The notes: generated by a model not told the origin, from the letters alone. A stretch of DNA of 64,000 bases from an uncultured Bacilli bacterium (GCA_934096175.1 CAKOLG010000001.1:117736-181735), one strand, 5' to 3'; counted from the stretch's first letter, positions 6,191-60,116 are shown. Made by a program: numbers and translations.

Positions 6191-7831
6191 TCATTCAGTT
6201 TCATATGTACCAAAGATTTCCTTAGCCACATCTTCAATATTATCGGTCTTTGACTCAGAAATTTCAACTTTTTCAGTGTCTTCGACATTATCTTCTTCCA
6301 TATAACTATATTTTATTTTATTCTTCAAATTAATTCTATACTTTTCTACTTCTTTTAACCACAAATTTTCATTTAATGCACAAAACAATAAATTATTACC
6401 AGAAAATTCAGCATATTTTTTTTCTAAATTTTTAATATCGGCATTAATCAAATCATTAGTAGAAGCTATTGTGCTTTCTATCAAAACATACTTATTTGAA
6501 GCAGCCAATATAACTGTATCTGCTAATATAGAAACCAATTGCCTATCTGCCTTCATCAAATAATTCATAAAATCAACCCATGAGCTTGTAACTAAACTTT
6601 TTTGTTCCTTAGAAGCATCTACAAAACAATTATTTATCCTTACATCAATATTAAAAGTAATCTCACTCTTGTTGATAACTTTATTTCCCAAATCTTTTTT
6701 TAAAGTAACAAAATCTTCTCTTGAACTTGTTTTTTTATTTCCCGTATCATTCGCATTATTTCCCGTACCCTGTTTATAGTTTTCAATATATTTTTGTTTA
6801 TTTCCCGCTTTATTTATATACTTCAATAGCACAATTTCAATCAATACATATGGATCAACATTGATATTTACGTTACATAAGCATTCATTTAAATCAAATA
6901 TCATCCCATAAATATCATCAAAACAAAAATCATGCTTTACCTCTCCTGACTTTAAGGATATAGCAACTTTTCTTAACTCAAAAATCATTTTCTCTACAAA
7001 AACAGAATAATTTGTGCCAGATTCTTTTATCTTTTTTAAAATATCCAGTAACTTTTCAATATTCCCCTCTTCAATACTTGTTAATAACTCATCAATTTTC
7101 TCGGTTGAAATACTACCAAAATAATTAGATACAATATCTAAAGTTATTTCCCGATCATCCGATGAGAGCTGATCCAACATACCTAAAGCATCACGCATTC
7201 CGCCAGCTGACAATAAAGCAATCTCATTTAAAGCATCATCCGTACACTTAATATTTTCTAAATCACAAATATAACCCAAACGTTTAACAATAGCAGCCTT
7301 ACTAATCGGTTTAAAATCAAACCTTTGACACCTAGATAAAATAGTTATTGGAACATCTTGAATATCAGTAGTCGCTAAAATAAAAACAACATGAGAAGGT
7401 GGTTCTTCCAAAGTAAGCAAAAGTGCATTAAAAGCACTAGCAGTCAGCATATGAACCTCATCAATAATATAAACCTTATATTTGGAAGACGTAGGAACCA
7501 ATTTTACATTGTTGATAAGTTCCCTTATTTCATCTACACCATTATTAGAAGCAGCATCTATCTCTATAATATCAGGATTTTCCTTAAAACTAAGGCAAGA
7601 ACTACAACAATTACATGGATTTCCATTCAATGGATTTTCACAATTCAGCGCCTTAGCAAACAACTTAGCTGAACTAGTTTTACCAGTTCCCCTAGGTCCA
7701 GTAAAAATATAAGCATGAGAATGCTTTCCACTTATAATAGATTTCTTTAACATATCAATTGTATAATCTTGTCCCACCACATTATCAAAATCATCCGGAC
7801 GATATTTTCTATACAAAACCTTATATCCCAT
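6191..7831 (-). CDS. dnaX: DNA polymerase III subunit gamma/tau
   Basis: Walker A GPRGTGKTS, zinc module CNCCSSC, and the SRC sensor motif (ILSRCQRF). Confidence 0.9.
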   Translation of the reverse strand: MGYKVLYRKYRPDDFDNVVGQDYTIDMLKKSIISGKHSHAYIFTGPRGTGKTSSAKLFAKALNCENPLNGNPCNCCSSCLSFKENPDIIEIDAASNNGVDEIRELINNVKLVPTSSKYKVYIIDEVHMLTASAFNALLLTLEEPPSHVVFILATTDIQDVPITILSRCQRFDFKPISKAAIVKRLGYICDLENIKCTDDALNEIALLSAGGMRDALGMLDQLSSDDREITLDIVSNYFGSISTEKIDELLTSIEEGNIEKLLDILKKIKESGTNYSVFVEKMIFELRKVAISLKSGEVKHDFCFDDIYGMIFDLNECLCNVNINVDPYVLIEIVLLKYINKAGNKQKYIENYKQGTGNNANDTGNKKTSSREDFVTLKKDLGNKVINKSEITFNIDVRINNCFVDASKEQKSLVTSSWVDFMNYLMKADRQLVSILADTVILAASNKYVLIESTIASTNDLINADIKNLEKKYAEFSGNNLLFCALNENLWLKEVEKYRINLKNKIKYSYMEEDNVEDTEKVEISESKTDNIEDVAKEIFGTYETE

Positions 7832-8303: not shown

Positions 8304-8315
8304 AAAATCACCATT

Positions 8316-8400
8316 AAAAAAGTGCACACAAACAGTGACTGATATGGCTGCTATCTTCCGATCCTGACCAAGTTACAATATATTTGTTGCACAAACATAT
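8316..8400 (-). ncRNA. ffs: signal recognition particle RNA (small 4.5S/scRNA-type), candidate
   Basis: The minus-strand sequence ACUUGGUCAGGAUCGGAAGAUAGCAGCCAUAUCAG matches the universal SRP domain IV motif (GGUCAGGNCCGGAAGGNAGCAGCCA), including a GGAA tetraloop. The closing stem is GUGCAACAAA...UUUGUGUGCAC, followed by a U-run. It sits next to tadA/dnaX, as scr does in B. subtilis. Confidence 0.65.
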
Positions 8401-8431: not shown

Positions 8432-8447
8432 TGTTTCACGTGAAACA
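8432..8447. promoter_or_regulatory. parS centromere-like site (TGTTTCACGTGAAACA), copy 1
   Basis: Perfect 16-bp palindrome identical to the Firmicutes parS consensus tGTTNCACGTGAAACa. It is origin-proximal. Confidence 0.7.
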
Positions 8448-8654: not shown

Positions 8655-8670
8655 CGTTTCACGTGAAACA
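8655..8670. promoter_or_regulatory. parS-like site (CGTTTCACGTGAAACA), copy 2, one mismatch
   Basis: Same palindrome with one mismatch in the first base. Confidence 0.6.
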
Positions 8671-8710: not shown

Positions 8711-8726
8711 TGTTTCACGTGAAACA
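8711..8726. promoter_or_regulatory. parS centromere-like site (TGTTTCACGTGAAACA), copy 3
   Basis: Perfect 16-bp palindrome, 12 nt downstream of the gyrA stop. Confidence 0.7.
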
Positions 8727-14336: not shown

Positions 14337-14786
14337 CTATTTTTTATCAATTTTTCTTAATTGTAGAGCTTCTTTTAATCTTGAACATCTGTATAATTGA
14401 TTATCAATAATTGCTGATGATACATCAACAAGAATCTTTTTCCCATTTTTAAGTTCTATAATTGTTTTATCCTTAAATTTATCTGGTTTAAAAATATGAG
14501 AATAACTCAACCAAGAACATTCTTCATTTTTAGGTGATAATGTTGGAAAAAAAATCAAATCAAAGCTTTCCTCTACAATAATTGGTACCTTATGCGTAAA
14601 ACCGATTATCTTCGATGTCCCCACCTGTCTTCCTTCTAATGAACTACCAAAGTATTCACAACTTTCTTCAACTATTTGTAATGGTGTTTTATCAACAACA
14701 AAAGAATTATCCTCCTCATAAACAATAGTTTTTTTATCTTTTGGAACTAACGCAATCGTATTTTTATTAATTTCATATGATTCCAT
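14337..14786 (-). CDS. comK: competence transcription factor ComK-family protein
   Basis: From the ATG at 14786 (strong RBS GGGAGG): MESYEINKNTIALVP...TPLQIVEESCEYFGSSLEGRQVGT...VPIIVEESFDLIFFPTLS. This aligns closely with B. subtilis ComK (ESYEVNGATIAVLP...KPLQIVDRSCRFFGSSYAGRKAGT...PPIMVDPSNQIFLFPTLS). Confidence 0.7.
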   Translation of the reverse strand: MESYEINKNTIALVPKDKKTIVYEEDNSFVVDKTPLQIVEESCEYFGSSLEGRQVGTSKIIGFTHKVPIIVEESFDLIFFPTLSPKNEECSWLSYSHIFKPDKFKDKTIIELKNGKKILVDVSSAIIDNQLYRCSRLKEALQLRKIDKK

Positions 14787-14913
14787 TTTAAAACCTCCCT
14801 TTCTTCCAAAATTTACCAACCTTTTAACAAATTTTATTGTCGAAAAAAATCGTTTTAAGTCGATAAAACGACAAAAAAGCAAAAAAATCGACAAAAATAA
14901 AAAAAATTACAGC

Positions 14914-19957: not shown

Positions 19958-19973
19958 TATTTCCCGGGAAATA
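19958..19973. promoter_or_regulatory. Noc-binding-site-like palindrome TATTTCCCGGGAAATA
   Basis: Contains a perfect 14-bp ATTTCCCGGGAAAT, identical to the B. subtilis NBS consensus. It lies 12 nt after the jag stop. The hairpin could also act as a weak terminator. Confidence 0.55.
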
Positions 19974-20060
19974 ATTTTTGATATACTATATATAACATAA
20001 TAAAAATATTTCCCAAGTACATAAATTGTGCTATAATACGAGCCAAAAGGAGTGAAGGCG

Positions 20061-21425
20061 ATGAATGATACTATATGTGCTATTGCAACTAGCCAAGGTG
20101 TAGGAGCAATTGCAATAATAAGAGTAAGTGGTGAAGACGCGGTTGCCATAGTTTCTAAAATATTTAAAGGAAAAGATTTAAAAACGGTCGATTCTCATAC
20201 AATTAACTACGGTCACATAATTGATAAATCGGGAAATATTATAGATGAGGTTTTAGTTTCCGTAATGCTAGCTCCTCGAACTTTTACCGCTGAAAATACT
20301 GTTGAAATAAATACCCACGGTGGTATAGCTGCTACAAACAAGGTTTTGGAATTACTTTTAACCAGTGGTTGTCGTCTAGCTGAACCAGGTGAGTTTACAA
20401 AAAGAGCTTTTTTAAACGGCAGAATAGATTTAATAGAAGCAGAAGCCGTTATGGATATGATTAATGCAAAAACAAACACTCAAAGAGAACTTGCTATAAA
20501 CCAAATAACTGGAAAAGTATCAGATCTTATAAATGAATTAAGAGATGACATGGTTCAAATAATTTCAAATATTAACGTAAATATTGATTACCCTGAATAC
20601 GATGACGTTGATATTATGACAGATGAAATTTTAGTTCCTAAAATAAACAAATTAAAAACTAAAATTGAAAAAATTTTACAAGAATCTAGAAATGGTCGTA
20701 TTATTAAAGATGGTATTAAAACATGTATAATAGGTAAACCTAACGTTGGGAAAAGTAGTTTACTAAACGCTCTTTTAGAAGAAGATAAAGCAATTGTTAC
20801 AGATATTGCTGGTACGACACGCGATATTGTTGAAGGCCAAATTAATATTAACGGAATTTTACTAAATATTATAGACACAGCAGGTATAAGAAATACCGAA
20901 GACAAAATTGAAGCTTTAGGAGTTGAAAAGAGTCTTAAAATGATGAATGAATCAGATTTGATTTTATTTGTTTTAAATAATAATGAACCATTAACTGATG
21001 ATTTACGAACTCTATTACACCAGCTTTCTGGTCGTAATTATATAATTATTATAAATAAAATAGACTTACCAACAAAGTTAGATTTAACAGAACTTGATGT
21101 TGATAACTGTGAATTTATTCACATGAGTGTTTTAAATAACCAAGGAATAACAGAATTAAAAAATAAAATAATAAAATTATTTAATATTTCCCAAATTGAA
21201 ACAAGTGATCCAACTTATCTAAGTAACGCTAGAAGTATAAGTATTTTGGAAGATTGTTTAGAATCTATTAAAGAAGTTGAAATAGGTTTGGGAAATAACC
21301 AACCGATAGATATGATAGAATTAGATATTAAAAATATCTGGGAAAAACTTGGTACCATAAATGGTACAACATATGAAGAAGAATTATTGGACGAAATGTT
21401 TAGTCGTTTTTGTCTTGGAAAATAA
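20061..21425 (+). CDS. mnmE: tRNA modification GTPase MnmE
   Basis: G-domain GKPNVGKSS and DTAGIR motifs. The C-terminus ends FCLGK instead of the canonical C(I/L/V)GK. ATG 20061 follows the RBS AAAGGAG. Confidence 0.9.
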   Translation: MNDTICAIATSQGVGAIAIIRVSGEDAVAIVSKIFKGKDLKTVDSHTINYGHIIDKSGNIIDEVLVSVMLAPRTFTAENTVEINTHGGIAATNKVLELLLTSGCRLAEPGEFTKRAFLNGRIDLIEAEAVMDMINAKTNTQRELAINQITGKVSDLINELRDDMVQIISNINVNIDYPEYDDVDIMTDEILVPKINKLKTKIEKILQESRNGRIIKDGIKTCIIGKPNVGKSSLLNALLEEDKAIVTDIAGTTRDIVEGQININGILLNIIDTAGIRNTEDKIEALGVEKSLKMMNESDLILFVLNNNEPLTDDLRTLLHQLSGRNYIIIINKIDLPTKLDLTELDVDNCEFIHMSVLNNQGITELKNKIIKLFNISQIETSDPTYLSNARSISILEDCLESIKEVEIGLGNNQPIDMIELDIKNIWEKLGTINGTTYEEELLDEMFSRFCLGK

Positions 21426-21443
21426 AAGGAAGTGTTAATAACT

Positions 21444-23312
21444 ATGTATGATGTAATAGTTGTAGGTGGCGGTCACGCCGGTTGTGAAGCGGCTCATGCT
21501 TGTGCAAAAAAAGGACATAAAACTCTTTTACTAACAAGTAATATTAAAAATATCGCTGATATGCCATGTAATCCGCACATTGGCGGTAGTGCCAAAGGAA
21601 TAGTAGTACGTGAAATCGATGCATTAGGTGGAATAATGGGACGTATTGCGGATAAAACGCACTTACAAATAAAAATGTTAAATAGTGCCAAAGGTCCAGC
21701 TGTTCAATCCCTAAGAGCTCAAGGAGACAAAATAGCTTACCCTAAAGAAATGTTAAAAACTCTAAAATCATTACCGGATTTAGAAATAAAAGAAGGAATG
21801 GTTGAAGATTTAATAGTAGAAAACAACGAAGTAAAGGGAGTTATCTTAGAAAATGCTACCAAAATTTTCTCTAAAGTTACAATTTTAACAACAGGGACAT
21901 ACTTAAAAGCGGATATTCTTGTTGGAAATACACGTACTAGAAAAGGTCCACACGGTGAAAGACCATCAAATTTCTTAAGCGATAAGTTAAAAGAATATGG
22001 CTTCAAAATAATTAGACTAAAAACAGGTACACCACAAAGGATAGATCGTAAATCAATTGACTTTTCTAAAACCAAACTCGAACCAGGTGATGACAAGTAT
22101 CTAACATTTAGTTACGATTTAGAACCATGCTATAAAATAGAAGATCAAGAACCTTGTTATCTGACATACACTACCGAAAAAACTCACGAAATAATTAGAA
22201 AAAATCTAAACAAATCTAGTATGTATGGTGCATTAGACGATATTAAAGGAATCGGTCCAAGATACTGTCCATCAATTGAAGATAAAGTAGTTAGATTTTC
22301 CGATAAAGAAAGACATCAATTATTTATTGAACCTGAAAGTAGATATTATGACGATATGTATCTTCAAGGTTTTTCAACTTCAATGCCGCCTGAAATTCAG
22401 GAACAAATGGTTCATAGTTTACCAGGATTTGAGAATGCCAAAATTTTAAAATATGGTTATGCTATCGAATATGATGCAATATACCCAACTCAATTAAATG
22501 CCAGCCTTGAAACAAAAATCCTATCTAATTTATTTACAGCCGGTCAAATAAATGGTACAAGTGGCTATGAAGAAGCAGCTTGCCAAGGTTTAATGGCCGG
22601 AATAAATGCTTGCCTTAAACTAGAAGGAAAAGAACCCTTTATCTTAAAACGTTCAGACGCATATATTGGTGTATTAATAGATGATTTAATTACAAAAGGA
22701 ATTAGGGATCCCTACAGATTATTAACAAGTCGAGCTGAATTTAGACTTCTTTTACGTAGTGACAATGCCGATTTACGTTTAAGAAGAAAAGGTTATGAAG
22801 TTGGTCTTATAAATAATGAACAAATAAATAAATTAAATAAAAAAGAAGAAGAAATAAAAGCATTATTAGAATACATGAAAAATACAAAATTAAAAATAAC
22901 TGATGAAATAAAACAATCATTTATAAACAATAATTACCAAGTACCAACAGCTTCATTAAGCTTAGAACAGTTAATAAAAAGACCTGAACTTAATATAGAT
23001 TTTTTAAGCAAACTAATAAATATTCCTTTTAACAAAGATATTCAAGATCAAGTTGAAATCAATTTAAAATATGAAGGATATATTGCCAAAGCTTATAAAG
23101 AAGCCGAAAAAATGCTAAAATTAGAACAAAAACAAATCCCAAATGATATAGATTATGATAAAATTTCAAATATTGCCAGCGAAGCTCGTCAAAAACTAAA
23201 AGAAGTAAGGCCAACTACAATAGCACAAGCTATCCGTATTAGTGGTGTAAATCCAGCTGACATTTCTATATTATCGGTATACTTAAAAAAGGAATATAAC
23301 AAAAATGAATAA
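21444..23312 (+). CDS. mnmG: tRNA uridine 5-carboxymethylaminomethyl modification enzyme MnmG
   Basis: FAD-binding motif VIVVGGGHAGCEAA. Conserved gidA position. Confidence 0.9.
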   Translation: MYDVIVVGGGHAGCEAAHACAKKGHKTLLLTSNIKNIADMPCNPHIGGSAKGIVVREIDALGGIMGRIADKTHLQIKMLNSAKGPAVQSLRAQGDKIAYPKEMLKTLKSLPDLEIKEGMVEDLIVENNEVKGVILENATKIFSKVTILTTGTYLKADILVGNTRTRKGPHGERPSNFLSDKLKEYGFKIIRLKTGTPQRIDRKSIDFSKTKLEPGDDKYLTFSYDLEPCYKIEDQEPCYLTYTTEKTHEIIRKNLNKSSMYGALDDIKGIGPRYCPSIEDKVVRFSDKERHQLFIEPESRYYDDMYLQGFSTSMPPEIQEQMVHSLPGFENAKILKYGYAIEYDAIYPTQLNASLETKILSNLFTAGQINGTSGYEEAACQGLMAGINACLKLEGKEPFILKRSDAYIGVLIDDLITKGIRDPYRLLTSRAEFRLLLRSDNADLRLRRKGYEVGLINNEQINKLNKKEEEIKALLEYMKNTKLKITDEIKQSFINNNYQVPTASLSLEQLIKRPELNIDFLSKLINIPFNKDIQDQVEINLKYEGYIAKAYKEAEKMLKLEQKQIPNDIDYDKISNIASEARQKLKEVRPTTIAQAIRISGVNPADISILSVYLKKEYNKNE

Positions 23313-24024
23313 AGAAGAATTTATAATAAACTTAAAAGAATTAGGTATTATCCCAAGTGATAAACAATTAAAACAACTAGAAATTTATTGCCAATTTCTC
23401 TTAGAATATAATACTCATACAAACTTAACTGCCATAAAAGAAGAAGATCAGGTATATTTAAAACATTTCTATGATTCATTAACTTTTACCAAAGCTATAA
23501 ATTTAACAAAATATAATAATTTGCTTGATGTAGGTACAGGAGCTGGATTCCCTGGAATGGTCTTAAAAATTTTTTATCCAGAACTAGAAATTACTCTTTT
23601 AGATTCTAATAATAAAAAAATAAATTTTTTAAAAGAATTAACCCAAAAATTAGAACTTACTAAAGTTAATTTTTATCACGGGAGAGCTGAAGAGTTTTGT
23701 CAAGAAAACAGAGAAAAGTTTGATATTGTAACAGCTCGTGCAGTAAGTAATTTATCTGTTTTAAGCGAACTTTGCTTACCGCTAACTAAAATAAATGGTT
23801 ACTTTATTCCCTTAAAAGGATCTAACTATGAAGAGTTAACTTCTGCTGATTATTGCATAAAAACATTGGGTGGAAAAATAGAAAACAAAATAACTTTTAC
23901 CTTACCAAAAGAAGAAAGCGTTCGCAATATTTTAATTATAAAAAAAATAATGCCAACACCACAACAATATCCTAGAAGATACGAAAAAATAATTAATAAG
24001 CCATTGAAAAATAATGCTAAATAA
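23305..24024 (+). CDS. rsmG: 16S rRNA m7G527 methyltransferase RsmG
   Basis: GidB family (DVGTGAGFPG). It overlaps the mnmG stop by 8 nt. Confidence 0.9.
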   Translation: MNKEEFIINLKELGIIPSDKQLKQLEIYCQFLLEYNTHTNLTAIKEEDQVYLKHFYDSLTFTKAINLTKYNNLLDVGTGAGFPGMVLKIFYPELEITLLDSNNKKINFLKELTQKLELTKVNFYHGRAEEFCQENREKFDIVTARAVSNLSVLSELCLPLTKINGYFIPLKGSNYEELTSADYCIKTLGGKIENKITFTLPKEESVRNILIIKKIMPTPQQYPRRYEKIINKPLKNNAK

Positions 24025-24066
24025 TGTATTATAAATAATAGGAAAAACTAAAAAGGGGCTGATAAA

Positions 24067-25452
24067 ATGAATTTAGAGTCTGGTGTTCTTCAAGTACATA
24101 TTGAAGATATTATACCTAATAGATTTCAACCAAGATTAAATTTTAATGAACAAGGAATAAAAGAATTAGCAGATTCTATAAAAGAACATGGAATAATTCA
24201 ACCTCTTGTTCTAAGAAAATTAGGCGATAAATATGAAATAATTGCTGGTGAAAGACGTTACAAAGCAGCACAATTAGCTGGACTTTCAACTGTTCCAGCT
24301 GTTATCGCAAATATTGATGATAATAAATCGGCAGAAGTTGCACTAGTAGAAAACGTCCAAAGAAGAGATTTAACTGCAATAGAAGAAGCTAGATCATATC
24401 AAAGTTTACTAAATAAAGGATATTTAACTCAAGAACAATTAGCAAAAAGAATGGGTTTATCTCAACCAGCAATTGCTAATAAACTAAGATTATTAAACCT
24501 TGACGAAGAAGTTCAACAAGCATTATTAGACGAAAAAATATCTGAAAGACACGCAAGAACACTGTTAACAATTGAAGATAAAAACCAACAAAGAGAATGG
24601 TTACATCGTATAATTAATGAAAGGTTAACTGTTCGTCAGTTAGATTTAGAGTTAAAAAAAATGAAAGAAGAAACAAATCCAAATAATGAAACTGATGAGG
24701 AAGAAGTTCCTTTAGTAGAACCAGTACCTAGTATTGAAAATATAATTGCTAATGCTGAAGATATAAACTCACCAAAAAATAAAATGTCTCTAGAAGACTT
24801 AATGAAACCACAACAAGTAGTCAATGAAAACATCGAAACTCTTGATCCGCCAGAGCCACCAGAAAATAAGGTTGAAACTTTTACAAGTGCAACCAAGGTT
24901 CCAGAATTTAATATAGCAACCCCAAACTCTGCTAGCACATTAATATCTGAGGAAGATATCACCAATTTAAATAATGACACCGGAAAATTCTTTAACTTTT
25001 CTGACCAATCAGCAGAACCTAATTTTAAAGAAAATTTACGCACTAATTTCCAAAATGATTTTATTGATATGACTCAAGCATCAGATAATCAACCAACTGA
25101 AGTAGAAGAAACTCCATTAGAACCTACTGATGATATTACTAGCAACACACATACAGATTTTGTACCAAACTCAAATAACAAATTCTTTACTTTAAATAAT
25201 TCTGAAAATATTTCAAACAACCTTCCTCCTAAAAAAGATACATATATTGATCCAATGGATGCAGTAAATAACTTAACTCCAGAAAAGCCAAAACAAGAGG
25301 AAAAAGAAAATGTAACAGATTTAAAAAATGCAATTTTAAGTATTAGAAAATGTATTGAAAATTTGGGCGAAAAAGGATTTTTTATAGATGTTGAAGAGAT
25401 AGATTTCCAAGCAAATTATGAAATAAAAATAGATATTCATAAAGATAATTAA
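24067..25452 (+). CDS. noc: ParB/Noc-family protein with ~180-aa acidic low-complexity insertion/tail
   Basis: N-terminal ParB domain with IIPNRFQPR and GERRYKAA. The HTH region, IANKLRLL...ISERHARTLL, resembles Noc (ITERHAR) more than Spo0J. No soj/spo0J follows it. Confidence 0.7.
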   Translation: MNLESGVLQVHIEDIIPNRFQPRLNFNEQGIKELADSIKEHGIIQPLVLRKLGDKYEIIAGERRYKAAQLAGLSTVPAVIANIDDNKSAEVALVENVQRRDLTAIEEARSYQSLLNKGYLTQEQLAKRMGLSQPAIANKLRLLNLDEEVQQALLDEKISERHARTLLTIEDKNQQREWLHRIINERLTVRQLDLELKKMKEETNPNNETDEEEVPLVEPVPSIENIIANAEDINSPKNKMSLEDLMKPQQVVNENIETLDPPEPPENKVETFTSATKVPEFNIATPNSASTLISEEDITNLNNDTGKFFNFSDQSAEPNFKENLRTNFQNDFIDMTQASDNQPTEVEETPLEPTDDITSNTHTDFVPNSNNKFFTLNNSENISNNLPPKKDTYIDPMDAVNNLTPEKPKQEEKENVTDLKNAILSIRKCIENLGEKGFFIDVEEIDFQANYEIKIDIHKDN

Positions 25453-25475: not shown

Positions 25476-26156
25476 ATGAAAAAAATAAATACTCTAAAAA
25501 TTTTAATGGCTACAATAATAATTGCTTTAGCTATTATCATTATAGTTGGAGATTTCTTTTCAAAAAAAGAAACAGCTAATAAAGAAAATGCTAAAACTGA
25601 AGAAGTAAAAAAAGAAATGTTTACAGCTACTTTAAAAGAAAATGATGAAATGGTAGTTCCAGTAAATGATAAAAAAATTTCTTTAAAATATAGCGTTGAA
25701 AATTATAGTGAAGACGTTGCTCAATTCCGTACTCATCTATCTGTTAATGAAAGCCAATTTACAAAAGAGGGAAGTGCTTTAAACGGTTATAAAGTTTTTG
25801 TTGTAAAAGGTACAGATGATAAAGAATATTTAACGCTTACAACTTCTTATAATACAGGTGGAACTGGTTTTGACGAATTATTAATATTTAATGATAATGG
25901 TGAGAAAATATACAGTTTTGATTACAGTGATTTTTCTTTTGATAATTGTGCTTTATTAGAATTTAATGGTAAGAGTTCTATACTTATAGAAGACAATAAA
26001 ATAATTTACTACGAAGCAACAGATAGTAATGTTGAATACACAAATGAAAAATATTACGTAAATGTTTCCGAAAAAGAAGTAATAATTAATAATAACACAG
26101 TAACATTAAAAGATAACGGAACAAAAAAAGGTGAGGCAGCACTAACTTGTTACTAA
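25476..26156 (+). CDS. hypothetical membrane-anchored protein
   Basis: N-terminal TM helix (ILMATIIIALAIIIIV) followed by a beta-rich extracellular region. No recognised motif. Confidence 0.5.
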   Translation: MKKINTLKILMATIIIALAIIIIVGDFFSKKETANKENAKTEEVKKEMFTATLKENDEMVVPVNDKKISLKYSVENYSEDVAQFRTHLSVNESQFTKEGSALNGYKVFVVKGTDDKEYLTLTTSYNTGGTGFDELLIFNDNGEKIYSFDYSDFSFDNCALLEFNGKSSILIEDNKIIYYEATDSNVEYTNEKYYVNVSEKEVIINNNTVTLKDNGTKKGEAALTCY

Positions 26157-43622: not shown

Positions 43623-44936
43623 ATGGGAAAAGTAAATGTAACAAAAAGAGGGAATCTATATCAATATAGATTTGAAATAGCTCCACAAGGGGGAGTTAGA
43701 AAATTTATTAACAAATCAGGTTTCAAGACAAAACAGGATGCTTATGTTGCTGGGATGAAAGCATTTAATGAATATATGAATACAGGTAAAAAATTTTCTC
43801 CTAATACATGTTCATATTCAGATTTTTTAGATTATTGGATGGCTAATTATTGTCAAATTAATCTAAGATATAATACGATAGAGGCATATAAAAGCATTAT
43901 TAAAAATCATGTTAAACCCAAATTAGGATTTTATAGGCTATCGCAAATAGATACAGCTACATTAAATGATTTTCTTACAGATGTGTTTTTGAATAAAGGA
44001 GTGTCAAAAAACTTTTTAAAAAGTATAATGAAAGTTTTAAAATCTTCATTTGCTTATGCTGAAGATGGTGTTGGATTCATTAAGCATAATCCAGCGTTGA
44101 AAATAAGATTACCAAGATATGATGGTCACGATGAAGATCCAGCTCATATTTTTACACCAGAAGAAATAGAAATGATTTTTAATAGATTTAAAAATAGTCA
44201 TTGTATATATTATGCTTTTTTAACAGCTTATTATACTGGACTGAGAGTTTCAGAAGTATTTGGACTGACATGGGAAGATATTGACTTGAAAAATAAGAAA
44301 TTAACTGTAAATAAAAATATTGTTGAAAAAAATCAAGTAGGTGGAACAAAGCACAGACTTATCAAAGGTCAAAGAACTACTGTTTGGTATTTTGGACCAT
44401 GTAAAACAAAAGCTAGCTATAGAACAATTGATATTGGAGATACATTAGTAGCAGCCTTAAAAGAATTTAAAGAAGAGCAAGAAATATATAAAGAACAATA
44501 TGGGGATTCATATATCAAACATTATGCAAAAGAAGTTTTAAATCAATATACAAATAAACCAGAAACTAAAATAGTTGATTGCAGTGCAGAAATTGATGTT
44601 GCTTTACCTGAAGTACATTTGGTATTTATAAAAAATAATGGGGCATTTGAAGGAAATAATACTTGCAAATATCCATTTAAAGTAATTCACTATGAGTTAG
44701 GAATACCTTGCAGATTTCACGATTTTAGAGATACACACGCAACAAGATTAATTGAAGCAGGAGCAGATATAAAAGCCGTTTCAAAAAGATTAGGACATAG
44801 TACAATTGAAACAACTTATAATATTTATGTAAGAGTTACAATTCAAATGGAAGAAGAAGTAGTTAGTAAATTTGAGGATTATGCAGACTCTTTAGAAATT
44901 ACTATTTCAAGAAAACCTACGGAATCAATTTCGTGA
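43623..44936 (+). CDS. int: tyrosine-type site-specific recombinase/integrase
   Basis: Catalytic domain with R...HDFRDTHATRLIEAGADIKAVSKRLGHSTIETTYNIYVRV (R-H-R-Y residues). N-terminal arm-binding-like domain. First gene of the accessory region. Confidence 0.85.
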   Translation: MGKVNVTKRGNLYQYRFEIAPQGGVRKFINKSGFKTKQDAYVAGMKAFNEYMNTGKKFSPNTCSYSDFLDYWMANYCQINLRYNTIEAYKSIIKNHVKPKLGFYRLSQIDTATLNDFLTDVFLNKGVSKNFLKSIMKVLKSSFAYAEDGVGFIKHNPALKIRLPRYDGHDEDPAHIFTPEEIEMIFNRFKNSHCIYYAFLTAYYTGLRVSEVFGLTWEDIDLKNKKLTVNKNIVEKNQVGGTKHRLIKGQRTTVWYFGPCKTKASYRTIDIGDTLVAALKEFKEEQEIYKEQYGDSYIKHYAKEVLNQYTNKPETKIVDCSAEIDVALPEVHLVFIKNNGAFEGNNTCKYPFKVIHYELGIPCRFHDFRDTHATRLIEAGADIKAVSKRLGHSTIETTYNIYVRVTIQMEEEVVSKFEDYADSLEITISRKPTESIS

Positions 44937-53992: not shown

Positions 53993-54129
53993 TCTTTCAC
54001 CTCCTACTATATTATATTTATCATTATGAAAAAAAAGTAATGTAAAAGCACGAATAAATGATAATTTTTATGATATAATAAAATAGATAAATTTATTTAC
54101 TTAAATTATATGTGGAAGGTGACAATTTA

Positions 54130-54690
54130 ATGGTAAAAAAATATATATTAATTGTTTTTTTGTTTTTAATTTTATTTTTATCTGGGTGTAGTAAAAAAGA
54201 AACGGGCTATTCTTATCATCCTACATATATAGACTCTAATAATGGCCAGCGTTGGTTGAACTATGCAATTTTGTATGAAAATACTTATACGGGGGTTAAA
54301 GATGGCTCATTAAGCATTTTAAAACAAGGAGAACAAACTGAGGAATATCAATTGTTTTTTTCAATAGATTCATTGTATTATAAAAAAGGAGATATTATAT
54401 TGGGGACTTCAAATTATATATACATCTTTAATCAAGATCAAGAAAAAAATTTTAGAATTATAGGATTTAAATTATCTTCTGAAAAAGAAACACCTGTAAT
54501 AATAGATAATAAAAAAATAAAATCTATTGTTAATGTCCATGGTGCTAACAAAGAAAATATATATGTAAGTTATTTTGATGATAAGAATGAAAGATATCTT
54601 AAAATAAGTGCAGATTTAAGTAAAATATATGAATTAGATAGTTTAGAAAGTGTAGAAGAACAAATGGAATATACTATTTTAAAAAAATAA
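54130..54690 (+). CDS. lipoprotein (hypothetical)
   Basis: Lipobox LFLSGCSKKE. ATG 54130 after GGAAGGTGA. Confidence 0.55.
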   Translation: MVKKYILIVFLFLILFLSGCSKKETGYSYHPTYIDSNNGQRWLNYAILYENTYTGVKDGSLSILKQGEQTEEYQLFFSIDSLYYKKGDIILGTSNYIYIFNQDQEKNFRIIGFKLSSEKETPVIIDNKKIKSIVNVHGANKENIYVSYFDDKNERYLKISADLSKIYELDSLESVEEQMEYTILKK

Positions 54691-54746
54691 TCAAAAATAG
54701 TTAAATATTTATGCTATAATGTATTTGTATAATATAGTGAGGAAAG

Positions 54747-54774
54747 GGTGATTAATAACAGGTGATTAATAACA
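54747..54774 (+). repeat. perfect tandem duplication 2 x GGTGATTAATAACA
   Basis: The 14-bp unit is repeated head-to-tail in the 5' leader of the downstream secreted-protein gene, just after a TGTATAAT extended -10. Confidence 0.6.
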
Positions 54775-54830
54775 ATAGTTTATTTTAATTTATTTATGTA
54801 TTCGGATGTAGAAATGGAGGAATGTTAATT

Positions 54831-55307
54831 ATGAAAAAAGTAGTATTTATAATTTTGTGTATGGCAGTTTTTATGCCGTTTGCAGTTGAAGCTAAGACTT
54901 GTGAGTATGGGATGCCATCACCACCAATATACTATAATGGAAATTGGGCTTATGGACAAGTAATAAATTTTAAGACGTCAGCATCATCATGTCTAGCTGA
55001 TAATATGTATGTTTATTTTAGTAATGGTAATTATTTATCCACTTTTAATTTTACCATAGAGGCTTATTTAATGGAAAAAGATAAAGATCCTAATCCAGAT
55101 GATAAAGCTAAACTATATTTTGGTTACAATTCAGGTTATAGTTTAATGAACTGGACTTTACAACAAAAATTTGATGGTAATTTAGATAGTGCTGGAGATC
55201 AAACTTGTGAGTTGTATATGAAATTTAGATTAAAAGAGCCGTTAGCACATAATAATTTTGAATACCTTGACAGCGATATGTTTAGATATACAATATGCAT
55301 GGATTAA
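54831..55307 (+). CDS. secreted Cys-containing protein, paralog A of a novel family
   Basis: Signal peptide MKKVVFIILCMAVFMPFAVEA. It shares KTCEYG / TSASSC / VYFSNG / YLME / GDQTCELYM blocks with the ORF at 63514. Confidence 0.6.
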   Translation: MKKVVFIILCMAVFMPFAVEAKTCEYGMPSPPIYYNGNWAYGQVINFKTSASSCLADNMYVYFSNGNYLSTFNFTIEAYLMEKDKDPNPDDKAKLYFGYNSGYSLMNWTLQQKFDGNLDSAGDQTCELYMKFRLKEPLAHNNFEYLDSDMFRYTICMD

Positions 55308-55789
55308 AAAAAACTCGAAAAATTTGGATACTATTATCAATTTTATTTTTGATAATAGTATCATCATTAATTGTTTTATTCAAAAAACCAATAAATAAAA
55401 TGGAAAGTAATAACTTGGATACAAATGAAAAATTTAATAAAAAGGAACAAAAAATAGTAGATGCAGCTTATAAAAAAATTGATAGTTCAGATTATTTTGA
55501 CCATTCTAATTTAAAAAAAATTGAACTAGAGAGCTTGCAATTATATGGATATTATAAATCTCAAAGCAATATTCTTTATATAAGGGTTAATTATAATTCA
55601 GAATGTAAAGATGGTACTTATAGTTGTGATAATCTTGCTAAAGATAAATCTTATAGCTTATCAAATAATATTCCATTTTATTTTTTTATTAAAGTAGATA
55701 CAAATAATTATAATCATTTAGAGATAGTTGATGGAATATCAGCCAATATAAATTCTGATTGGATATCAGATTCTAGTAAAATAGAGTAA
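55295..55789 (+). CDS. membrane-anchored hypothetical protein
   Basis: N-terminal TM (IWILLSILFLIIVSSLIVL). It overlaps the preceding gene's end. Confidence 0.45.
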   Translation: MHGLKKTRKIWILLSILFLIIVSSLIVLFKKPINKMESNNLDTNEKFNKKEQKIVDAAYKKIDSSDYFDHSNLKKIELESLQLYGYYKSQSNILYIRVNYNSECKDGTYSCDNLAKDKSYSLSNNIPFYFFIKVDTNNYNHLEIVDGISANINSDWISDSSKIE

Positions 55790-55892
55790 TATCATCAAAT
55801 AAAGCAGCAATAGAAAATAATATATTTCAAAAATTAAATTAAAAAAATATATTGACTAATATTTGATTAAATGTTAATATTATTATGACAAA

Positions 55893-55965
55893 TGAATACG
55901 GTGTATTTTCGGTGTTAATTATATATAGACCTTGGTTGGTTTTTTATAGTTAACACTTTTTTATT
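55893..55965 (+). repeat. conserved inverted-repeat/terminator-like element, copy 1 (TACGGTGTATTTTCGGTGTTAATTA...AGTTAACAC-TTTTTT)
   Basis: The arms GGTGTTAAT / (A)GTTAACAC, with conserved upstream TACGGTnnATTT and a downstream T-run, recur at 57866-57927. Confidence 0.55.
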
Positions 55966-56169
55966 ACCTAATATTTATTTTATATGTCCGGACTATAAAT
56001 AAAATATGGTATTTATATCTATTGTGTTCAATTGTCAATCATTTTATTTGATATTATGATTGAAACGGACTTGAATACGGTATTTTAAATCTTTCTATAT
56101 ATTAGATAAAAAATTTAATATTTAAGCAATTTTTTAATATTCTAACAAAAGCAGCAACAGGAGATCCAT

Positions 56170-56385
56170 ATGTATACAATGTACGAACCTACAGGGAATA
56201 TAATAGGTTATATTCAACCTCATGATTTCTATGTTAGATATCTGGTTAGTAGCCCTAGTATGGATAATGTTCATAGAGTTGTGTTTAATGATGGTAAAGA
56301 TGTTAAAATAGGTTATATAAGAGAACAGTATGTTTTACCTAGTATGACTTTAAATCCTACTGATGATGAAGCAGTAAAAGCATAA
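56170..56385 (+). CDS. hypothetical small protein
   Basis: 71-aa ORF downstream of element copy 1. No signal peptide. Confidence 0.35.
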   Translation: MYTMYEPTGNIIGYIQPHDFYVRYLVSSPSMDNVHRVVFNDGKDVKIGYIREQYVLPSMTLNPTDDEAVKA

Positions 56386-56388
56386 ATA

Positions 56389-56724
56389 TTGGTAGGTTAT
56401 GAACCATTCACTTGTGTAGAATATGATCAAGCTTCTGATGAATATATACTGCATAAATGGAAAGATACACCATCAAGAGAAATCTATATTAATAAACTAG
56501 TCCCTTATTTTAATGCCCAATGGTCTTATGTAGGGATGCTTAATAAAGGTGATTATATAAAAATAAATAGAGGTAATTTTATTAATCCAGGGTACACAAG
56601 ACCATGGACAAATCGTATAGATGGAATTAAGAAAAAAGGTAGTATTTCATTTACTAGTTTTTCTGGTTATGCAATTATTGGAATTGAGTACGCTAGTCAA
56701 GGATATGAAAGAGCTTGGTATTAG
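56389..56724 (+). CDS. hypothetical protein
   Basis: 111-aa ORF, 3 nt after the previous gene. Aromatic-rich, with no signal peptide. Confidence 0.4.
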   Translation: MVGYEPFTCVEYDQASDEYILHKWKDTPSREIYINKLVPYFNAQWSYVGMLNKGDYIKINRGNFINPGYTRPWTNRIDGIKKKGSISFTSFSGYAIIGIEYASQGYERAWY

Positions 56725-56785
56725 AAAACTATCATTAGATATTATCAAGTATAATATAATATGATATAATAGTTTTGGTGATTAA

Positions 56786-57007
56786 GCTGAAAATATAATT
56801 ATACTTTTACTTTTGATATTATGTGTATGTGGATGTGAAAATAACAATCAATATACAGATTTTAAACATTATGATTTAAGGAATTATGATATTACTAATA
56901 AATATTCCTATGTAGATGATGATTATATATATTATAATGGAAGTACTAGTATTTCTAGTTCAATTGAAGTTGTCAAATGTTCTAGAAATAGTTATAAATG
57001 TCAATAA
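56786..57007 (+). pseudogene. small lipoprotein-like ORF lacking an AUG/GUG start (remnant or non-canonical ATA/ATT/TTG initiation)
   Basis: The in-frame sequence AENIIILLLLILCVCGCENNNQ looks like a signal peptide plus lipobox, but no Met lies between the upstream stop (56783-56785) and the lipobox. A GGTGA RBS sits 13 nt upstream of ATA 56795. Confidence 0.25.
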
Positions 57008-57090
57008 TAAAATACCAAACTAAAACTATTATCATGATTAATAAAGAAAATGCTTGATATGCATTTTCTTTATTTTATTTATAGGCGAGG

Positions 57091-57849
57091 ATGGTGATTA
57101 AAATTAAACTTGTAACTAAAATATTTAAAAGAAATGATTGGTATGTAACTTCACCTTTTGGAAGTAGAAATCCAATTAAAACTAAAAAAGGTATAACCAC
57201 CAGCTTTCATAATGGATGCGATTATGGAACTAATGGAGAAAAGTGGGGACAATATGCTTTAGAAAATGGCAAAATTTTATCTTGTGGAATCGCTTCTGAT
57301 GGAGCTAAATATATATGGGTAAATTATCCAAGAATCAATAAAAAAATTTTGCACTACCATTTAGATAGTATTTGTGTAAAAACGGGGCAAGAAGTTCATG
57401 AGGGATTATTACTTGGCTATACAGGTTCAACTGGTATGGCTACAGGAATTCATTTACATTTAGGAATGAAAAATAGTAATGGTGGAGACTATGAAGATCC
57501 ACATAATTATGATTACCAGTTAAATAACATTAATCATTCTGAGACATCTAAAATGGATTTAATAAAAATTGCTTATGAAGTAATTGCAGGGAAATATGGT
57601 AATGGAAAGACTAGAATTGATAAACTTACTAATATGGGATATAATGCAAGTGATGTTCAAAAGATAGTAAATGAAATAAAAAATAAAGAGCTAAAACGGA
57701 CAAATTTTTACATAGTAAAAAAAGATGATACTCTAATAAAAATAGCTAAAAAATTTGGAACAACATGGGAAAAATTATATGAATTAAATAGAGACATTAT
57801 AGGTAATGATCCTGATTTAATTAAAATAGGTCAAATATTGAAATACTAG
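57091..57849 (+). CDS. M23 (LytM) peptidase with C-terminal LysM domain, no signal peptide (endolysin-like)
   Basis: HNGCDYG...GYTGSTGMATGIHLHLGM (HxxxD/HxH zinc site) and LysM YIVKKDDTLIKIAKKFGTTWEKLYELN. The N-terminus is not a signal peptide. Confidence 0.7.
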   Translation: MVIKIKLVTKIFKRNDWYVTSPFGSRNPIKTKKGITTSFHNGCDYGTNGEKWGQYALENGKILSCGIASDGAKYIWVNYPRINKKILHYHLDSICVKTGQEVHEGLLLGYTGSTGMATGIHLHLGMKNSNGGDYEDPHNYDYQLNNINHSETSKMDLIKIAYEVIAGKYGNGKTRIDKLTNMGYNASDVQKIVNEIKNKELKRTNFYIVKKDDTLIKIAKKFGTTWEKLYELNRDIIGNDPDLIKIGQILKY

Positions 57850-57865
57850 TAAAAAAAATTTATAA

Positions 57866-57927
57866 TTACGGTAATTTATTCGGTGTTAATTAGTATATAA
57901 TTTTTTATATTGATTAACACCTTTTTT
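57866..57927 (+). repeat. conserved inverted-repeat/terminator-like element, copy 2 (TACGGTAATTTATTCGGTGTTAATTAGTATATA...TTGATTAACACC-TTTTTT)
   Basis: The 9-bp arms GGTGTTAAT / ATTAACACC with a T6 tail. It sits 55 bp upstream of the holin gene. Confidence 0.55.
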
Positions 57928-57982
57928 ATATTTGTTAAAGAGTAGATGTTTTAAGTCAATTTTATAAAGAGAGGGGAAGAAA

Positions 57983-58417
57983 ATGAAACAAGTTCTTGAT
58001 AAAATAATTAGTTTTTTGTTATATTTTTTGCTTTTTCTATTTGGAAGTTTTGATTTTATGTTAAAAACTTTATTGTCTTTAATGTTTATAGATTATATAA
58101 CAGGTGTAAGTAGAGCATTTATTACAAAAAAGGTTAATAGCAGTATAGGAGGTAAAGGAATTATAAAAAAAGCAGTATACTTATGTGTTGTTGCAGTAGC
58201 AGTAATATTAGACAATTTATTGGAAGTAAACGGAGGTTTAAGAGCTTTAATTATATATTCATTTATTTTTAACGAAATGTTATCAATTTTAGAAAATAGT
58301 AGTGCTATGGGAATCAAAGTTCCTAATATTTTATATAAATCACTTGAAAAATTAAATAAAGATCAAAATGAAAATGATAAAGAAATAGTAAAAAGTGAAG
58401 AATCAAAGCATAAATAA
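57983..58417 (+). CDS. TcdE/UviB-family holin (toxin-secretion/phage-lysis holin, Phage_holin_4_1-like)
   Basis: Three TM helices, MFIDYITGV and the central TKKVNSSIGGKGIIKKAVY. Compare C. difficile TcdE SRKFNSSFGIDGGIRKVAM. Charged C-terminal tail. Confidence 0.7.
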   Translation: MKQVLDKIISFLLYFLLFLFGSFDFMLKTLLSLMFIDYITGVSRAFITKKVNSSIGGKGIIKKAVYLCVVAVAVILDNLLEVNGGLRALIIYSFIFNEMLSILENSSAMGIKVPNILYKSLEKLNKDQNENDKEIVKSEESKHK

Positions 58418-58833
58418 TGTTGCTAATACTTTAGCAGTGTATAAAAAAGTCGAATTTTATTGTATAATATCTATGATAGCAAGGCAAAAATGCCAAGTAT
58501 TTATATTAAGAAATGTGATGGTGAAATAATAATAAAAAGAAACTAGTTAAGTAGTAAGAAGTAAAAAGTAGTATAATACACTTTCTATTCTTACTGTAGA
58601 TACTAGTTTATATATGCAAAAAAATTGTGTAGTATTTATTTTTTGCTTTATATGAATTGCTTTTATGGAGCGATTATTATGGAACTAGAAAAGTATTATA
58701 CATATTTTTTAGTAAGAAAAGATAGTATATTAAATCATAAAAAGACTATATTCTTTGCTCTAAAGGCTAATAAGAAATATAGTCTTTTTCAATTTATAAA
58801 AATACTTTTTCTTAGGGCAAGAAGTCCTCCCGT

Positions 58834-58869
58834 TCCTATCAATTTAATAAAAAATTTAAATTGATAGGA
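58834..58869 (+). promoter_or_regulatory. RBS-occluding hairpin TCCTATCAATTTAA-taaaaaa-TTAAATTGATAGGA upstream of sigma-like regulator gene
   Basis: Perfect 14-bp inverted repeat. The 3' arm includes GATAGGAGG, part of the SD sequence for the ATG at 58880. Confidence 0.5.
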
Positions 58870-58879
58870 GGAAGAAATT

Positions 58880-59356
58880 ATGGGTAAGTTCCCAAAAAGA
58901 AGAAAAAGTAAGGATAATCCGTATACACTTGGATTTGATGAAATAAAAAAGACTTATACTATTTCATTTAAAGATGTGAATAACATTATTCAAGTGATTG
59001 AAATAAATGAATTGTTATATAAAGAGTTCAATAAGTTTGAATTAGAAGATTTATCTGAAATGAATGAATATGATAATCATATTGAGCACTCAGAACTTTA
59101 TGAAGAAACTTTATATAAAAGATCTTTTAATAAAGATATATCAATAGAAGACAATATTGAAACTAAATTAATGGTAGAACTATTAAACATTTTTATAGAA
59201 GAATTACCAACTATACAAAAAAATAGATTAAAAAAGTATTATATAGAACACAAAACATATGAAAAAATAGCAATAGAAGAAGGATGCACAAAAAGAGCAG
59301 TAAAATTTAGTATAGATATTGCAATTCAAAAATTATCAAAAAAATTTAAAAATTAG
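58880..59356 (+). CDS. sigma-70 region-4-like HTH regulator (possible TcdR/UviA- or RinA-like activator)
   Basis: C-terminal LPTIQKNRLKKYYIEHKTYEKIAIEEGCTKRAVKFSIDIAIQKL resembles ECF/sigma region 4. A basic N-terminus. 158 aa. Confidence 0.5.
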   Translation: MGKFPKRRKSKDNPYTLGFDEIKKTYTISFKDVNNIIQVIEINELLYKEFNKFELEDLSEMNEYDNHIEHSELYEETLYKRSFNKDISIEDNIETKLMVELLNIFIEELPTIQKNRLKKYYIEHKTYEKIAIEEGCTKRAVKFSIDIAIQKLSKKFKN

Positions 59357-59477
59357 ACTACACAAAACATATTTAAGTTAGGAAACAAGTGAAAGGGATA
59401 TAATACTCTTTCACTTGCTATCCAAAAATTTTATAAGCTAATTTTAAAAGATTTAGTGTTTAATAGTCAAAATCATA

Positions 59478-59663: not shown

Positions 59664-59681
59664 AAGAACGGAGATGAAAAA

Positions 59682-60017: not shown

Positions 60018-60116
60018 ATTAGTATTAAATCTTTTAAAAATGTAATTAAAAATTTGGAAAGCTTAGATGTACTAAAAATTTGCATTAAAAATTTAATATT
60101 TAAGGAGATGAAAAAA

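Follow-up and report, generated by a model that had tools for sequence, protein, structure and literature searches.

How can a nucleoid-occlusion protein of the Noc type act when it lacks the helix that carries Noc to the membrane? This question is raised by a 64,000-nucleotide stretch of DNA from an uncultured Bacilli bacterium (GCA_934096175.1, CAKOLG010000001.1:117736-181735; hereafter the window, in which positions are counted from the first letter). The window has a G+C content of 27.2% and holds the replication-origin region of a low-GC Firmicute. A perfect Noc-binding site (NBS) stands behind jag, and the gene directly after rsmG encodes a ParB-family protein with a long acidic insertion. 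By its sequence features the protein is a Noc-lineage variant and not a canonical Noc, and in its clade the NBS sites cluster near oriC beside parS sites. From this clustering of the two sites, the protein would have its role at the origin next to a separate ParB and would not take the place of ParB.

Noc is the textbook nucleoid-occlusion factor of Firmicutes, and its accepted mechanism needs an N-terminal amphipathic helix that is released by a cytidine triphosphate (CTP) switch. The helix is extremely conserved, was predicted in all homologues examined and is required for function (Adams et al. 2015).

Four sets of related sequences were compared with the window. Full-length relatives of the protein were collected by a homology search (449-542 residues, 54-99% identity). 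A scan of species-representative genomes gave 80 orthologous loci (1.3 Mb, G+C 22-35%), which belong to gut metagenome-assembled genomes (MAGs) labelled Bacilli, Tenericutes, Mycoplasma or Erysipelotrichaceae. For distant representatives, 1.84 billion cluster representatives were searched and the best 150 matches (205-821 residues) were kept; every one of these 150 is of the Noc-like type described here. Finally, 80 metagenome loci with a related gyrA (72-89% identity) and the same gene order added 1.1 Mb. The sampled DNA of the relatives, orthologous (noc) and gyrA loci together, is origin-proximal throughout and comes to ~2.5 Mb.

Results

A Noc-lineage protein without the N-terminal helix

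The gene and the domains of its product are as follows.

24067-25452, plus strand: Noc-like ParB-family gene, 461 residues, directly after rsmG and last of the mnmE-mnmG-rsmG cluster
24067-24360, plus strand: ParB N-terminal (CTP-binding) domain, residues 1-98 (Pfam ParB_N, 2e-33), with PNRFQPR and GERRYKAA
24367-24675, plus strand: helix-turn-helix (HTH) DNA-binding domain, residues 101-203 (Pfam HTH_ParB), with GLSQPAIANKLRLLNL (residues 130-145) and ISERHAR (residues 158-164)
24676-25311, plus strand: acidic linker of low model confidence, residues 204-415 (212 residues), net charge -29, 16% Asn, 10% Pro
25318-25449, plus strand: Noc-type C-terminal (dimerisation-like) domain, residues 418-461, modelled by AlphaFold2 as a helix (419-435) and two strands

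The N-terminal domain begins just 16 residues ahead of PNRFQPR, and the helices α1 and α2 of Noc are missing. An in-frame stop codon lies 18 nt ahead of the ATG, so that an N-terminal extension is impossible. Alignments with proteins in the PDB start at residue ~27-28 of Geobacillus Noc, which bears out the original prediction that the amphipathic helix is absent; the motifs cited in that prediction, IIPNRFQPR (residues 15-23), ISERHAR and GFFIDVEEIDFQANYEIKIDI, are likewise all present. The CTP motifs are kept, with G61, E62, R63, R64, E95, N96, Q98 and R99 invariant in the family alignment and the motif ENVQRR (residues 95-100) spanning the 3' boundary of the N-terminal domain. The protein is thus predicted to bind CTP.

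Comparison with known proteins places it nearest to Noc. Sequence matches in the PDB reach 1e-55, and the best by both sequence and fold are the Noc proteins of Geobacillus and B. subtilis, with Spo0J/ParB close behind. Foldseek likewise gives Noc and ParB as top matches (probability 1.00), and BLAST hardly separates Spo0J from Noc in overall similarity. The NCBIfam Noc model (TIGR04285) scores the protein at 285.6 bits, B. subtilis Noc at 373 and Spo0J at 259, and the excess over a generic ParB model is +102, +154 and +30, respectively; the B. subtilis Noc sequence used here aligns with the model over its full length, which speaks for its accuracy. The short C-terminal motif that had been read as dimerisation-like proved to be of the Noc type. 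A profile of the last 60 residues of the family matches residues 239-283 of B. subtilis Noc at 31.6 bits (E 1e-11) and does not match B. subtilis Spo0J (-0.4 bits), although BLASTP with the single C-terminal domain gave no alignment to that of B. subtilis Noc. The placement in the Noc lineage thus follows from the model score, the C-terminal domain and the position after rsmG. Because the score lies below the curated cut-off of the model (315 bits) and the N-terminal helix is missing, we call the protein a Noc-lineage variant.

The DNA specificity of the protein can be predicted from four positions that separate ParB (R173, T179, A184, G201) from Noc (Q, K, K, R) (Jalal et al. 2020). In that study the NBS is read by Gln173 at adenine 1 and by Arg201 at cytosine 6; Q and R switch the specificity, and a single Lys at 179 or 184 is enough to license binding. 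By elimination, QKAR, QTKR and QKKR remain from its text as the NBS-preferring variants, parS-specific variants always retain Arg173, and variants of dual specificity exist in the ParB mutant library. The window protein carries Q133, K139, N144 and R161, which agrees with Noc at three of the four positions (QKNR vs QKKR) and upholds the Noc-type specificity proposed earlier. The exact variant QKNR is not classified in the supplements of Jalal et al. 2020. With Q, R and one permissive Lys, the predicted target is the NBS. The equivalent of Lys171, a DNA contact conserved in ParB and Noc, is Leu131.

These properties belong to a family that comprises 150 or more clusters (at 50% identity), every one of them from gut MAGs. 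Its specificity residues read Q-K-(N/S/T)-R almost without exception: the window's own species has Q-K-x-R, as do 74 of the 80 orthologous loci and no fewer than 134 of the 149 distant representatives. The short N-terminus without the helix is found in all 80 orthologous loci and in about 140 of the 149 distant representatives, whose ParB core starts at residue 1-22 and, in all but four, within the first 10. Core identity to the window protein is 82-92% in the close family and 56-92% among the distant representatives.

A conserved Noc-binding site at the start of the operon

The site and the promoter elements next to it in the jag-mnmE spacer are the following.

19958-19973, no strand: NBS TATTTCCCGGGAAATA, a perfect 16-bp palindrome, 16/16 match to the Bacillus NBS
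19979-19987, plus strand: extended -10-like element TGATATACT, its -10 hexamer 8 nt past the NBS
20007-20037, plus strand: best-scoring mnmE promoter candidate by promoter scoring, TTCCCA-16-TATAAT, TG-extended

The original prediction had identified ATTTCCCGGGAAAT (19959-19972) as the NBS consensus; the flanking bases extend the identity to the 16-mer TATTTCCCGGGAAATA, which is the sole match to the NBS in the 64 kb. It lies 12 nt past the jag stop codon and 88 nt ahead of the mnmE ATG, with a T-run after it. About 1e-4 exact copies are expected in 64 kb from base composition (scaled), and with two or fewer mismatches allowed a match appeared in 20 of 100 shuffles of the window. Folded as RNA, the site reaches -3.6 kcal/mol, no better than shuffled sequence, and no terminator was called.

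The relatives settle whether such a site is maintained. The orthologous loci hold 22 exact copies of the 16-mer, spread over 18 of the 80, where 0.002 copies are expected, and it is by far the commonest palindrome. Its commonest position there is the jag-mnmE spacer, as in the window; across the orthologous and the gyrA loci, other copies lie in the gyrA-SRP (signal recognition particle) RNA spacer, in the mnmE-mnmG spacer, downstream of dnaN and inside genes. Together with 103 exact copies in the gyrA loci, they supply many times over, in related genomes, the further NBS copies that the original prediction called for. A terminator or a chance match was rejected as an explanation of the palindrome by this conservation and by the folding energy. 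On comparative grounds, the palindrome at 19958-19973 is a real conserved site under selection, and it is predicted to be one loading site of the Noc-like protein.

In seven related species the NBS stands 6-9 nt upstream of the -10 hexamer of TGnTATAAT or TGnTATACT in the same spacer. At this distance it covers the -35/spacer region of the putative promoter, of which TGATATACT is the counterpart in the window, for the operon that ends in the Noc-like gene. In addition, an isolated NBS half-site, TATTTCCC (20007-20014), overlaps the -35 element of the best-scoring mnmE promoter candidate. The protein may therefore regulate its own operon through the NBS at the promoter.

Two further observations concern the site and its halves. 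In L070 (1846-1890) and L075 (7034-7078), two related loci, the NBS lies inside the mnmE coding region with a second partial copy alongside (…AAATTCCGGGAAA TATTTCCCGGGAAATA…), so that the site can be maintained within a gene too. The half-site TATTTCCC/GGGAAATA occurs 22 times in the window against 2.7 copies expected from shuffles (positions include 1218, 1281, 1538, 1753, 6682-7145, 20007, 20231 and 21290), and the parS half-site is not enriched. Twelve genic half-sites read GGGAAATA on the sense strand, against 1.6 expected by codon shuffling; most have the form xxG-GGA-AAT-Axx (Gly-Asn), with a rare G-ending codon before. In related loci the excess of half-sites is modest only.

NBS and parS sites cluster beside oriC

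The gyrA-SRP RNA spacer of the window carries three parS sites that the original prediction had missed.

8306-8400, minus strand: bacterial small SRP RNA gene (Rfam RF00169, 56 bits)
8432-8447, no strand: parS TGTTTCACGTGAAACA, directly upstream of the SRP RNA gene promoter TTGACA-17-TAATAT (minus strand)
8655-8670, no strand: parS with one mismatch, CGTTTCACGTGAAACA
8711-8726, no strand: parS TGTTTCACGTGAAACA, 13 nt past the gyrA stop codon

All three fall within this 410-bp spacer, whose far end is formed by the SRP RNA gene in every relative checked. With up to three mismatches on both strands, the window holds 7 parS matches against 1.8 expected. The three parS sites of the window point to a separate true ParB.

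In the gyrA loci the same spacer is crowded with both sites. The 1.1 Mb contain 239 parS sites (117 exact, 122 with one mismatch) and 141 NBS (103 exact, 38 with one mismatch). The 2.5 kb that follow gyrA hold every one of these parS sites and 118 of the NBS (84%), and an NBS has its nearest parS at a median distance of 36 bp. Of the 67 evaluable loci, 42 contain both site types and 17, like the window, contain parS alone; NBS stand alone in 4, and the remaining 4 lack both. The orthologous loci (1.3 Mb), in turn, contain no parS.

The two sites are in part built into common arrays. Downstream of gyrA in L125 (4140-4440), L148 (12471-13019), L138 (4376-5467) and L130 (12488-14640), parS and NBS alternate 10-20 bp apart in tandem or dispersed arrays. 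In three of these the tandem unit consists of one parS and one NBS, with 61 bp repeated 5 times (L125), 119 bp repeated 4.6 times (L148) and 77 bp repeated 14 times (L138). Thirteen other loci have tandem arrays of parS only, with periods of 34-140 bp.

The two palindromes are kept strictly apart. Among 225 sites with the backbone TnTTTCnC/GnGAAAnA, 117 are pure parS, 103 are pure NBS and 5 are single-base variants; none combines a half of each. Two discrete palindromes without hybrids suggest two homodimeric readers of orthogonal specificity, so that a true ParB is to be expected besides the Noc-like protein. No direct sequence overlap joins the noc loci to the gyrA loci. On one contig, JAAGKN010000211.1 (GCA_011262095.1), the Noc-like gene and its promoter NBS are physically linked to an NBS and a one-mismatch parS downstream of gyrA.

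The acidic linker carries conserved motifs

The Asp/Glu/Asn/Pro-rich segment noticed earlier is present, but it spans 212 residues and not ~180. It had been taken for a disordered insertion, a description that fails in one respect, as the linker carries conserved short motifs.

24706-24765, plus strand: conserved linker island VPLVEPVPSIENIIANAEDI, residues 214-233, with a predicted short helix at 223-229
24982-24999, plus strand: first FF motif, GKFFNF, residues 306-311 (family alignment)
25177-25194, plus strand: second FF motif, NKFFTL, residues 371-376 (family alignment)

AlphaFold2 gives a predicted local distance difference test score (pLDDT) below 50 over residues 206-218, 246-394 and 406-416, and the model is informative for the core and the C-terminal domain only. 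Every family member examined has an acidic linker of this kind, with 60-390 or more residues; in the 57 orthologues whose linker was measured, its length lies between 61 and 386. Its most widespread island is the FF motif, with the consensus P-N-K/R-F-F-N-F-L-E-D and one to several copies in most orthologues. The pattern N[KR]FF[NT][FLYP] has 50 matches in 79 orthologues and none in the 379,000 residues encoded by other open reading frames (ORFs) of the same loci, an enrichment of more than 100-fold. In the second motif, N371, F373/F374 and T375 are invariant or nearly so within the close family.

The motif resembles membrane-targeting peptides of Firmicutes. Its core, +FFxΦxE, is similar to R7-F8-F9-G10-L11-G12-E13 of Noc, and the helical hydrophobic moment of the consensus IPNKFFNFLED is 0.56-0.59, compared with 0.43 for residues 1-11 of B. 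subtilis Noc. It also resembles the N-terminal anchor of SepF. A β-clamp-binding motif and a mimic of the FtsZ C-terminal peptide were considered as well and set aside, as the residue spacing of the FF motif fits neither consensus. In Noc, mutation of F5, R7 or F9 abolishes membrane binding, and a heterologous amphipathic helix can stand in for Noc's own (Adams et al. 2015).

Gene order, neighbouring genes and host

The minus strand of the window carries, in order, tadA, the SRP RNA gene, gyrA, gyrB, recF, a ComK-like ORF, dnaN and dnaA, and the plus strand rpmH, rnpA, yidC, jag, mnmE, mnmG, rsmG and the ParB-family gene. Synteny in the family is rigid: dnaN and dnaA are followed by yidC, jag, mnmE, mnmG, rsmG and the Noc-like gene, and in most other loci with a recovered 3' flank a convergent PBP1 gene comes next.

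As the original prediction held, soj and spo0J are not adjacent to the gene. Neither was found in the 64-kb window by tblastn or the family hidden Markov model (HMM), and neither soj nor a second ParB gene lies in the ~10 kb past its right end (L087-L089), within 10 kb of the Noc-like gene in the 80 orthologous loci, or in the 160 related loci overall. Of the order rsmG-noc-soj-spo0J, then, the rsmG-noc adjacency is present, and soj-spo0J is absent here and in 80 of 80 related loci. S. aureus also lacks soj and has an unlinked ParB and no ParA, so that the order noc-soj-spo0J is not strictly defining for Noc.

Next to the Noc-like gene in the window stands one more gene.

25476-26156, plus strand: 226-residue protein with an N-terminal transmembrane (TM) segment, between the Noc-like gene and the convergent PBP1 gene

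This TM protein, which has no Pfam or NCBIfam match, had been suggested as the partner that tethers the Noc-like protein to the membrane. Among the 81 species compared it occurs only in the window's own, and it is missing from all 80 related loci. The proposed partner is therefore not conserved, and it was rejected in that role.

A ParB-family protein of identical sequence is encoded on 12 contigs of gut metagenomes, sampled from Hadza and other people, and close homologues are labelled Candidatus Coprovivens (Bacilli incertae sedis). The ORF between dnaN and recF (14337-14894, minus strand) is called a 149-residue ComK-family protein (PF06338) on matching contigs and is an odd occupant of this position. 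Sporulation-type genes for SpoIIR, SpoIID and an M23 peptidase, possibly SpoIIQ-like, lie on the plus strand at 32765-33274, 37724-38608 and 38638-39291. Their presence in a genome whose relatives are publicly labelled Tenericutes or Mycoplasma suggests that the host is a small-genome spore-former. Farther downstream on the plus strand are a phage-type integrase (43623-44936) and, at ~54000-63300, a holin (PF05105) with cell-wall hydrolases (M23/CW_7/LysM; PG_binding); the region from the integrase to the hydrolases is probably an integrated prophage or a prophage remnant. On the related contig L088, a reverse-transcriptase gene and a phage-tail-type gene stand instead upstream of the same flanking gene (window 62619-63293).

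Discussion

Our data suggest a strategy in which a CTP clamp of the Noc lineage loads at NBS near oriC beside ParB and in which the effector part has moved into the linker, a reading that we are on balance inclined to accept. The Noc-like protein would dimerise on the NBS, close as a CTP-dependent sliding clamp and spread as Noc and ParB do. It would coat origin-proximal DNA side by side with a separate, unlinked ParB that binds parS. The output would run through the linker and no longer through an N-terminal helix coupled to the CTP switch. The FF motifs could serve as weak multivalent amphipathic anchors in the membrane. Alternatively, they could be peptides onto which a division or segregation protein docks that is itself associated with the membrane. 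In either role they would retain the origin region at the cell periphery and bar the divisome from the origin. That the FF motifs form such a new link, be it with the membrane or with a protein of division or segregation, and that origin anchoring or local occlusion results from it, is possible but well short of probable. Taken together, parS and NBS beside oriC might form a two-part centromere in a large clade of gut Bacilli, loading a true ParB and a Noc-derived clamp whose linker motifs tie the origin to the membrane or the divisome independently of ParA. We put this fuller picture forward tentatively and regard it as doubtful.

Several results weigh against this reading. In the ~2.5 Mb of origin-proximal DNA the family HMM did not find the parS-binding ParB that it calls for. 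Only one NBS is present in the window, and none lies next to the parS sites there; outside the clusters the NBS density in the relatives is 1 per 42-59 kb (23 in 961 kb; 22 in 1.3 Mb), which equals the genome-wide density of B. subtilis (~1 per 60 kb). With regard to the protein, the equivalent of Lys171 is replaced by Leu, Val or Ile in the family, and other members score at 273-288 bits, like the window protein below the curated Noc cut-off. The linker raises difficulties of its own. The two FF motifs of the window are weakly amphipathic (hydrophobic moment 0.32 and 0.19) and have no predicted helix in the AlphaFold2 model, the strongly acidic surroundings disfavour binding to anionic membranes, and the motif is missing from about a quarter of the orthologues and about two-thirds of the distant representatives.

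Classical nucleoid occlusion is the alternative that survives best, although we consider it unlikely. The NBS would be scattered across the greater part of the chromosome, as they are in Bacillus and Staphylococcus, the clusters next to parS would reflect limited intergenic space near oriC, and another membrane-binding element would drag the DNA to the membrane, so that the protein would still block division. The NBS agrees with the Bacillus and Staphylococcus consensus at every base, and its density outside the clusters fits such a spread; in B. subtilis and S. aureus the NBS are dispersed over the origin-proximal part of the chromosome. The likeness of the FF motif to known Firmicute membrane-targeting peptides would supply the anchor, whose identity is not critical, since a heterologous amphipathic helix replaces Noc's own. 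All of the sampled DNA, however, is origin-proximal, and none of it demonstrates dispersion. In addition, limited intergenic space hardly accounts for the placing of 84% of the gyrA-locus NBS in one spacer, tens of bp from parS and in some loci within shared tandem units, which can hardly be accidental, and the N-terminal helix described in all Noc homologues examined is missing.

A regulator of transcription or replication that works without tethering is less probable still. It could be a KorB-like repressor of the mnmE-mnmG-rsmG-noc operon, or a modulator of oriC firing like S. aureus Noc, which controls replication initiation; KorB is itself a ParB-family CTP clamp that acts as a repressor. 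The NBS over the -35/spacer region in the window and the seven related species, and the half-site at the -35 element of the best-scoring promoter of the window, are consistent with this. Most NBS copies, on the other hand, lie away from the operon promoter, the promoter site is confined to a sub-clade, and simple repression needs no conserved motif-bearing linker of 60-390 or more residues. Few intergenic spacers are available, moreover, so that sites must sit there and promoters are there anyway.

We think it very improbable that the Noc-like protein is the only ParB of these bacteria, a partition protein that binds both parS and NBS. Such a role would account for the lack of a second ParB-family gene or Soj in the window, in the ~10 kb past its right end and in the 160 related origin-proximal loci, and for the physical interleaving of the two sites. 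The nearly equal BLAST similarity to Spo0J and Noc, and the dual-specificity variants of the ParB mutant library, would also agree with it. An unlinked ParB without ParA, however, is normal in Firmicutes, as S. aureus illustrates, and Gln at position 173 with Arg at 201 reads the NBS, whereas parS-specific variants invariably have Arg173. A dimer tolerant of both sequences should allow mixed-half sites, but the 225 sites include none and no intermediate palindrome, and the C-terminal domain is of the Noc type and not the Spo0J type.

Finally, a chance match or jag terminator next to a decaying ParB paralogue with a junk insertion can be dismissed: despite the single NBS in 64 kb, the ease of two-mismatch matches in shuffles, the site's place just past a stop codon before a T-run and the low model confidence of the linker, the exact 16-mer recurs in 22 and 103 copies in relatives with no compensatory variation, its hairpin is as weak as that of shuffled sequence, and the protein core, the CTP motifs, the linker motifs and the C-terminal domain are all conserved.

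Placed beside known systems, the proposed clamp is closest to the Noc proteins of B. subtilis, Geobacillus thermoleovorans and S. aureus. They have in common an N-terminal domain with CTP motifs, the residues corresponding to Gln173, Arg201 and the permissive Lys179, the identical 16-bp NBS, a Noc-type C-terminal domain and a gene directly after rsmG (gidB); the best PDB matches (7ng0, 7nfu, 7ol9) are 47-51% identical over the core. Without α1 and α2, the window protein is a natural equivalent of the crystallised construct NocNΔ26. It differs from Noc in the Asn at position 184, the Leu in place of Lys171, the score below the NCBIfam cut-off and the lack of soj-spo0J after the gene, and it has a 212-residue acidic, motif-bearing linker where Noc has a short basic one. 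In the relatives, the NBS form clusters beside oriC in which they are interleaved with parS; for Bacillus and Staphylococcus no such arrangement is described.

Spo0J/ParB shares the fold, the CTP-clamp motifs, ~43-50% identity over the core and loading sites near oriC, and in the relatives the predicted sites of the Noc-like protein form centromere-like tandem arrays. The window protein, in contrast, has Gln133 and Arg161 in place of Arg173 and Gly201, and it has neither the Spo0J-type C-terminal domain nor the N-terminal Lys/Arg-rich peptide that activates ParA, for which no gene lies nearby; the parS sites of the window are predicted to be read by another protein. KorB of plasmid RK2 is also a ParB-family clamp with a site at its own operon promoter, as in this sub-clade, and with a flexible region, which KorB uses for partner contact. 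The identity is only 24-28%, however, the operator sequence is another one, no KorA-like partner is known here and most NBS lie off promoters. RicO (S. aureus), RocS (S. pneumoniae) and RacA (B. subtilis) are analogous in function only, as sequence-specific DNA binders with origin-proximal sites. RicO and RocS have an amphipathic helix that is not N-terminal and act in Firmicutes without ParA. All three differ from the Noc-like protein in their fold (MerR-like HTH and coiled coil), their DNA motifs and the lack of a CTP clamp, and membrane binding is experimental for RicO and hypothesised for the Noc-like protein. Neither Noc proteins without the helix nor arrays that mix parS and NBS are described in the literature searched. 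The components, namely the ParB/Noc fold, the NBS and parS, are known; the novelty lies in the architecture of the protein and in how its sites are arranged.

The hosts of this family are abundant uncultured bacteria of the human and animal gut, with small genomes. The helix-less family lends itself directly to testing which parts of the Noc mechanism are indispensable, and it shows how a ParB paralogue can be rewired after duplication. The interleaved parS/NBS arrays suggest that two orthogonal ParB-family clamps can be deliberately co-loaded on one stretch of the chromosome, which bears on how Firmicutes without ParA position and segregate their origins. If true, the two-part centromere would represent an origin-anchoring or segregation system made from a repurposed nucleoid-occlusion protein.

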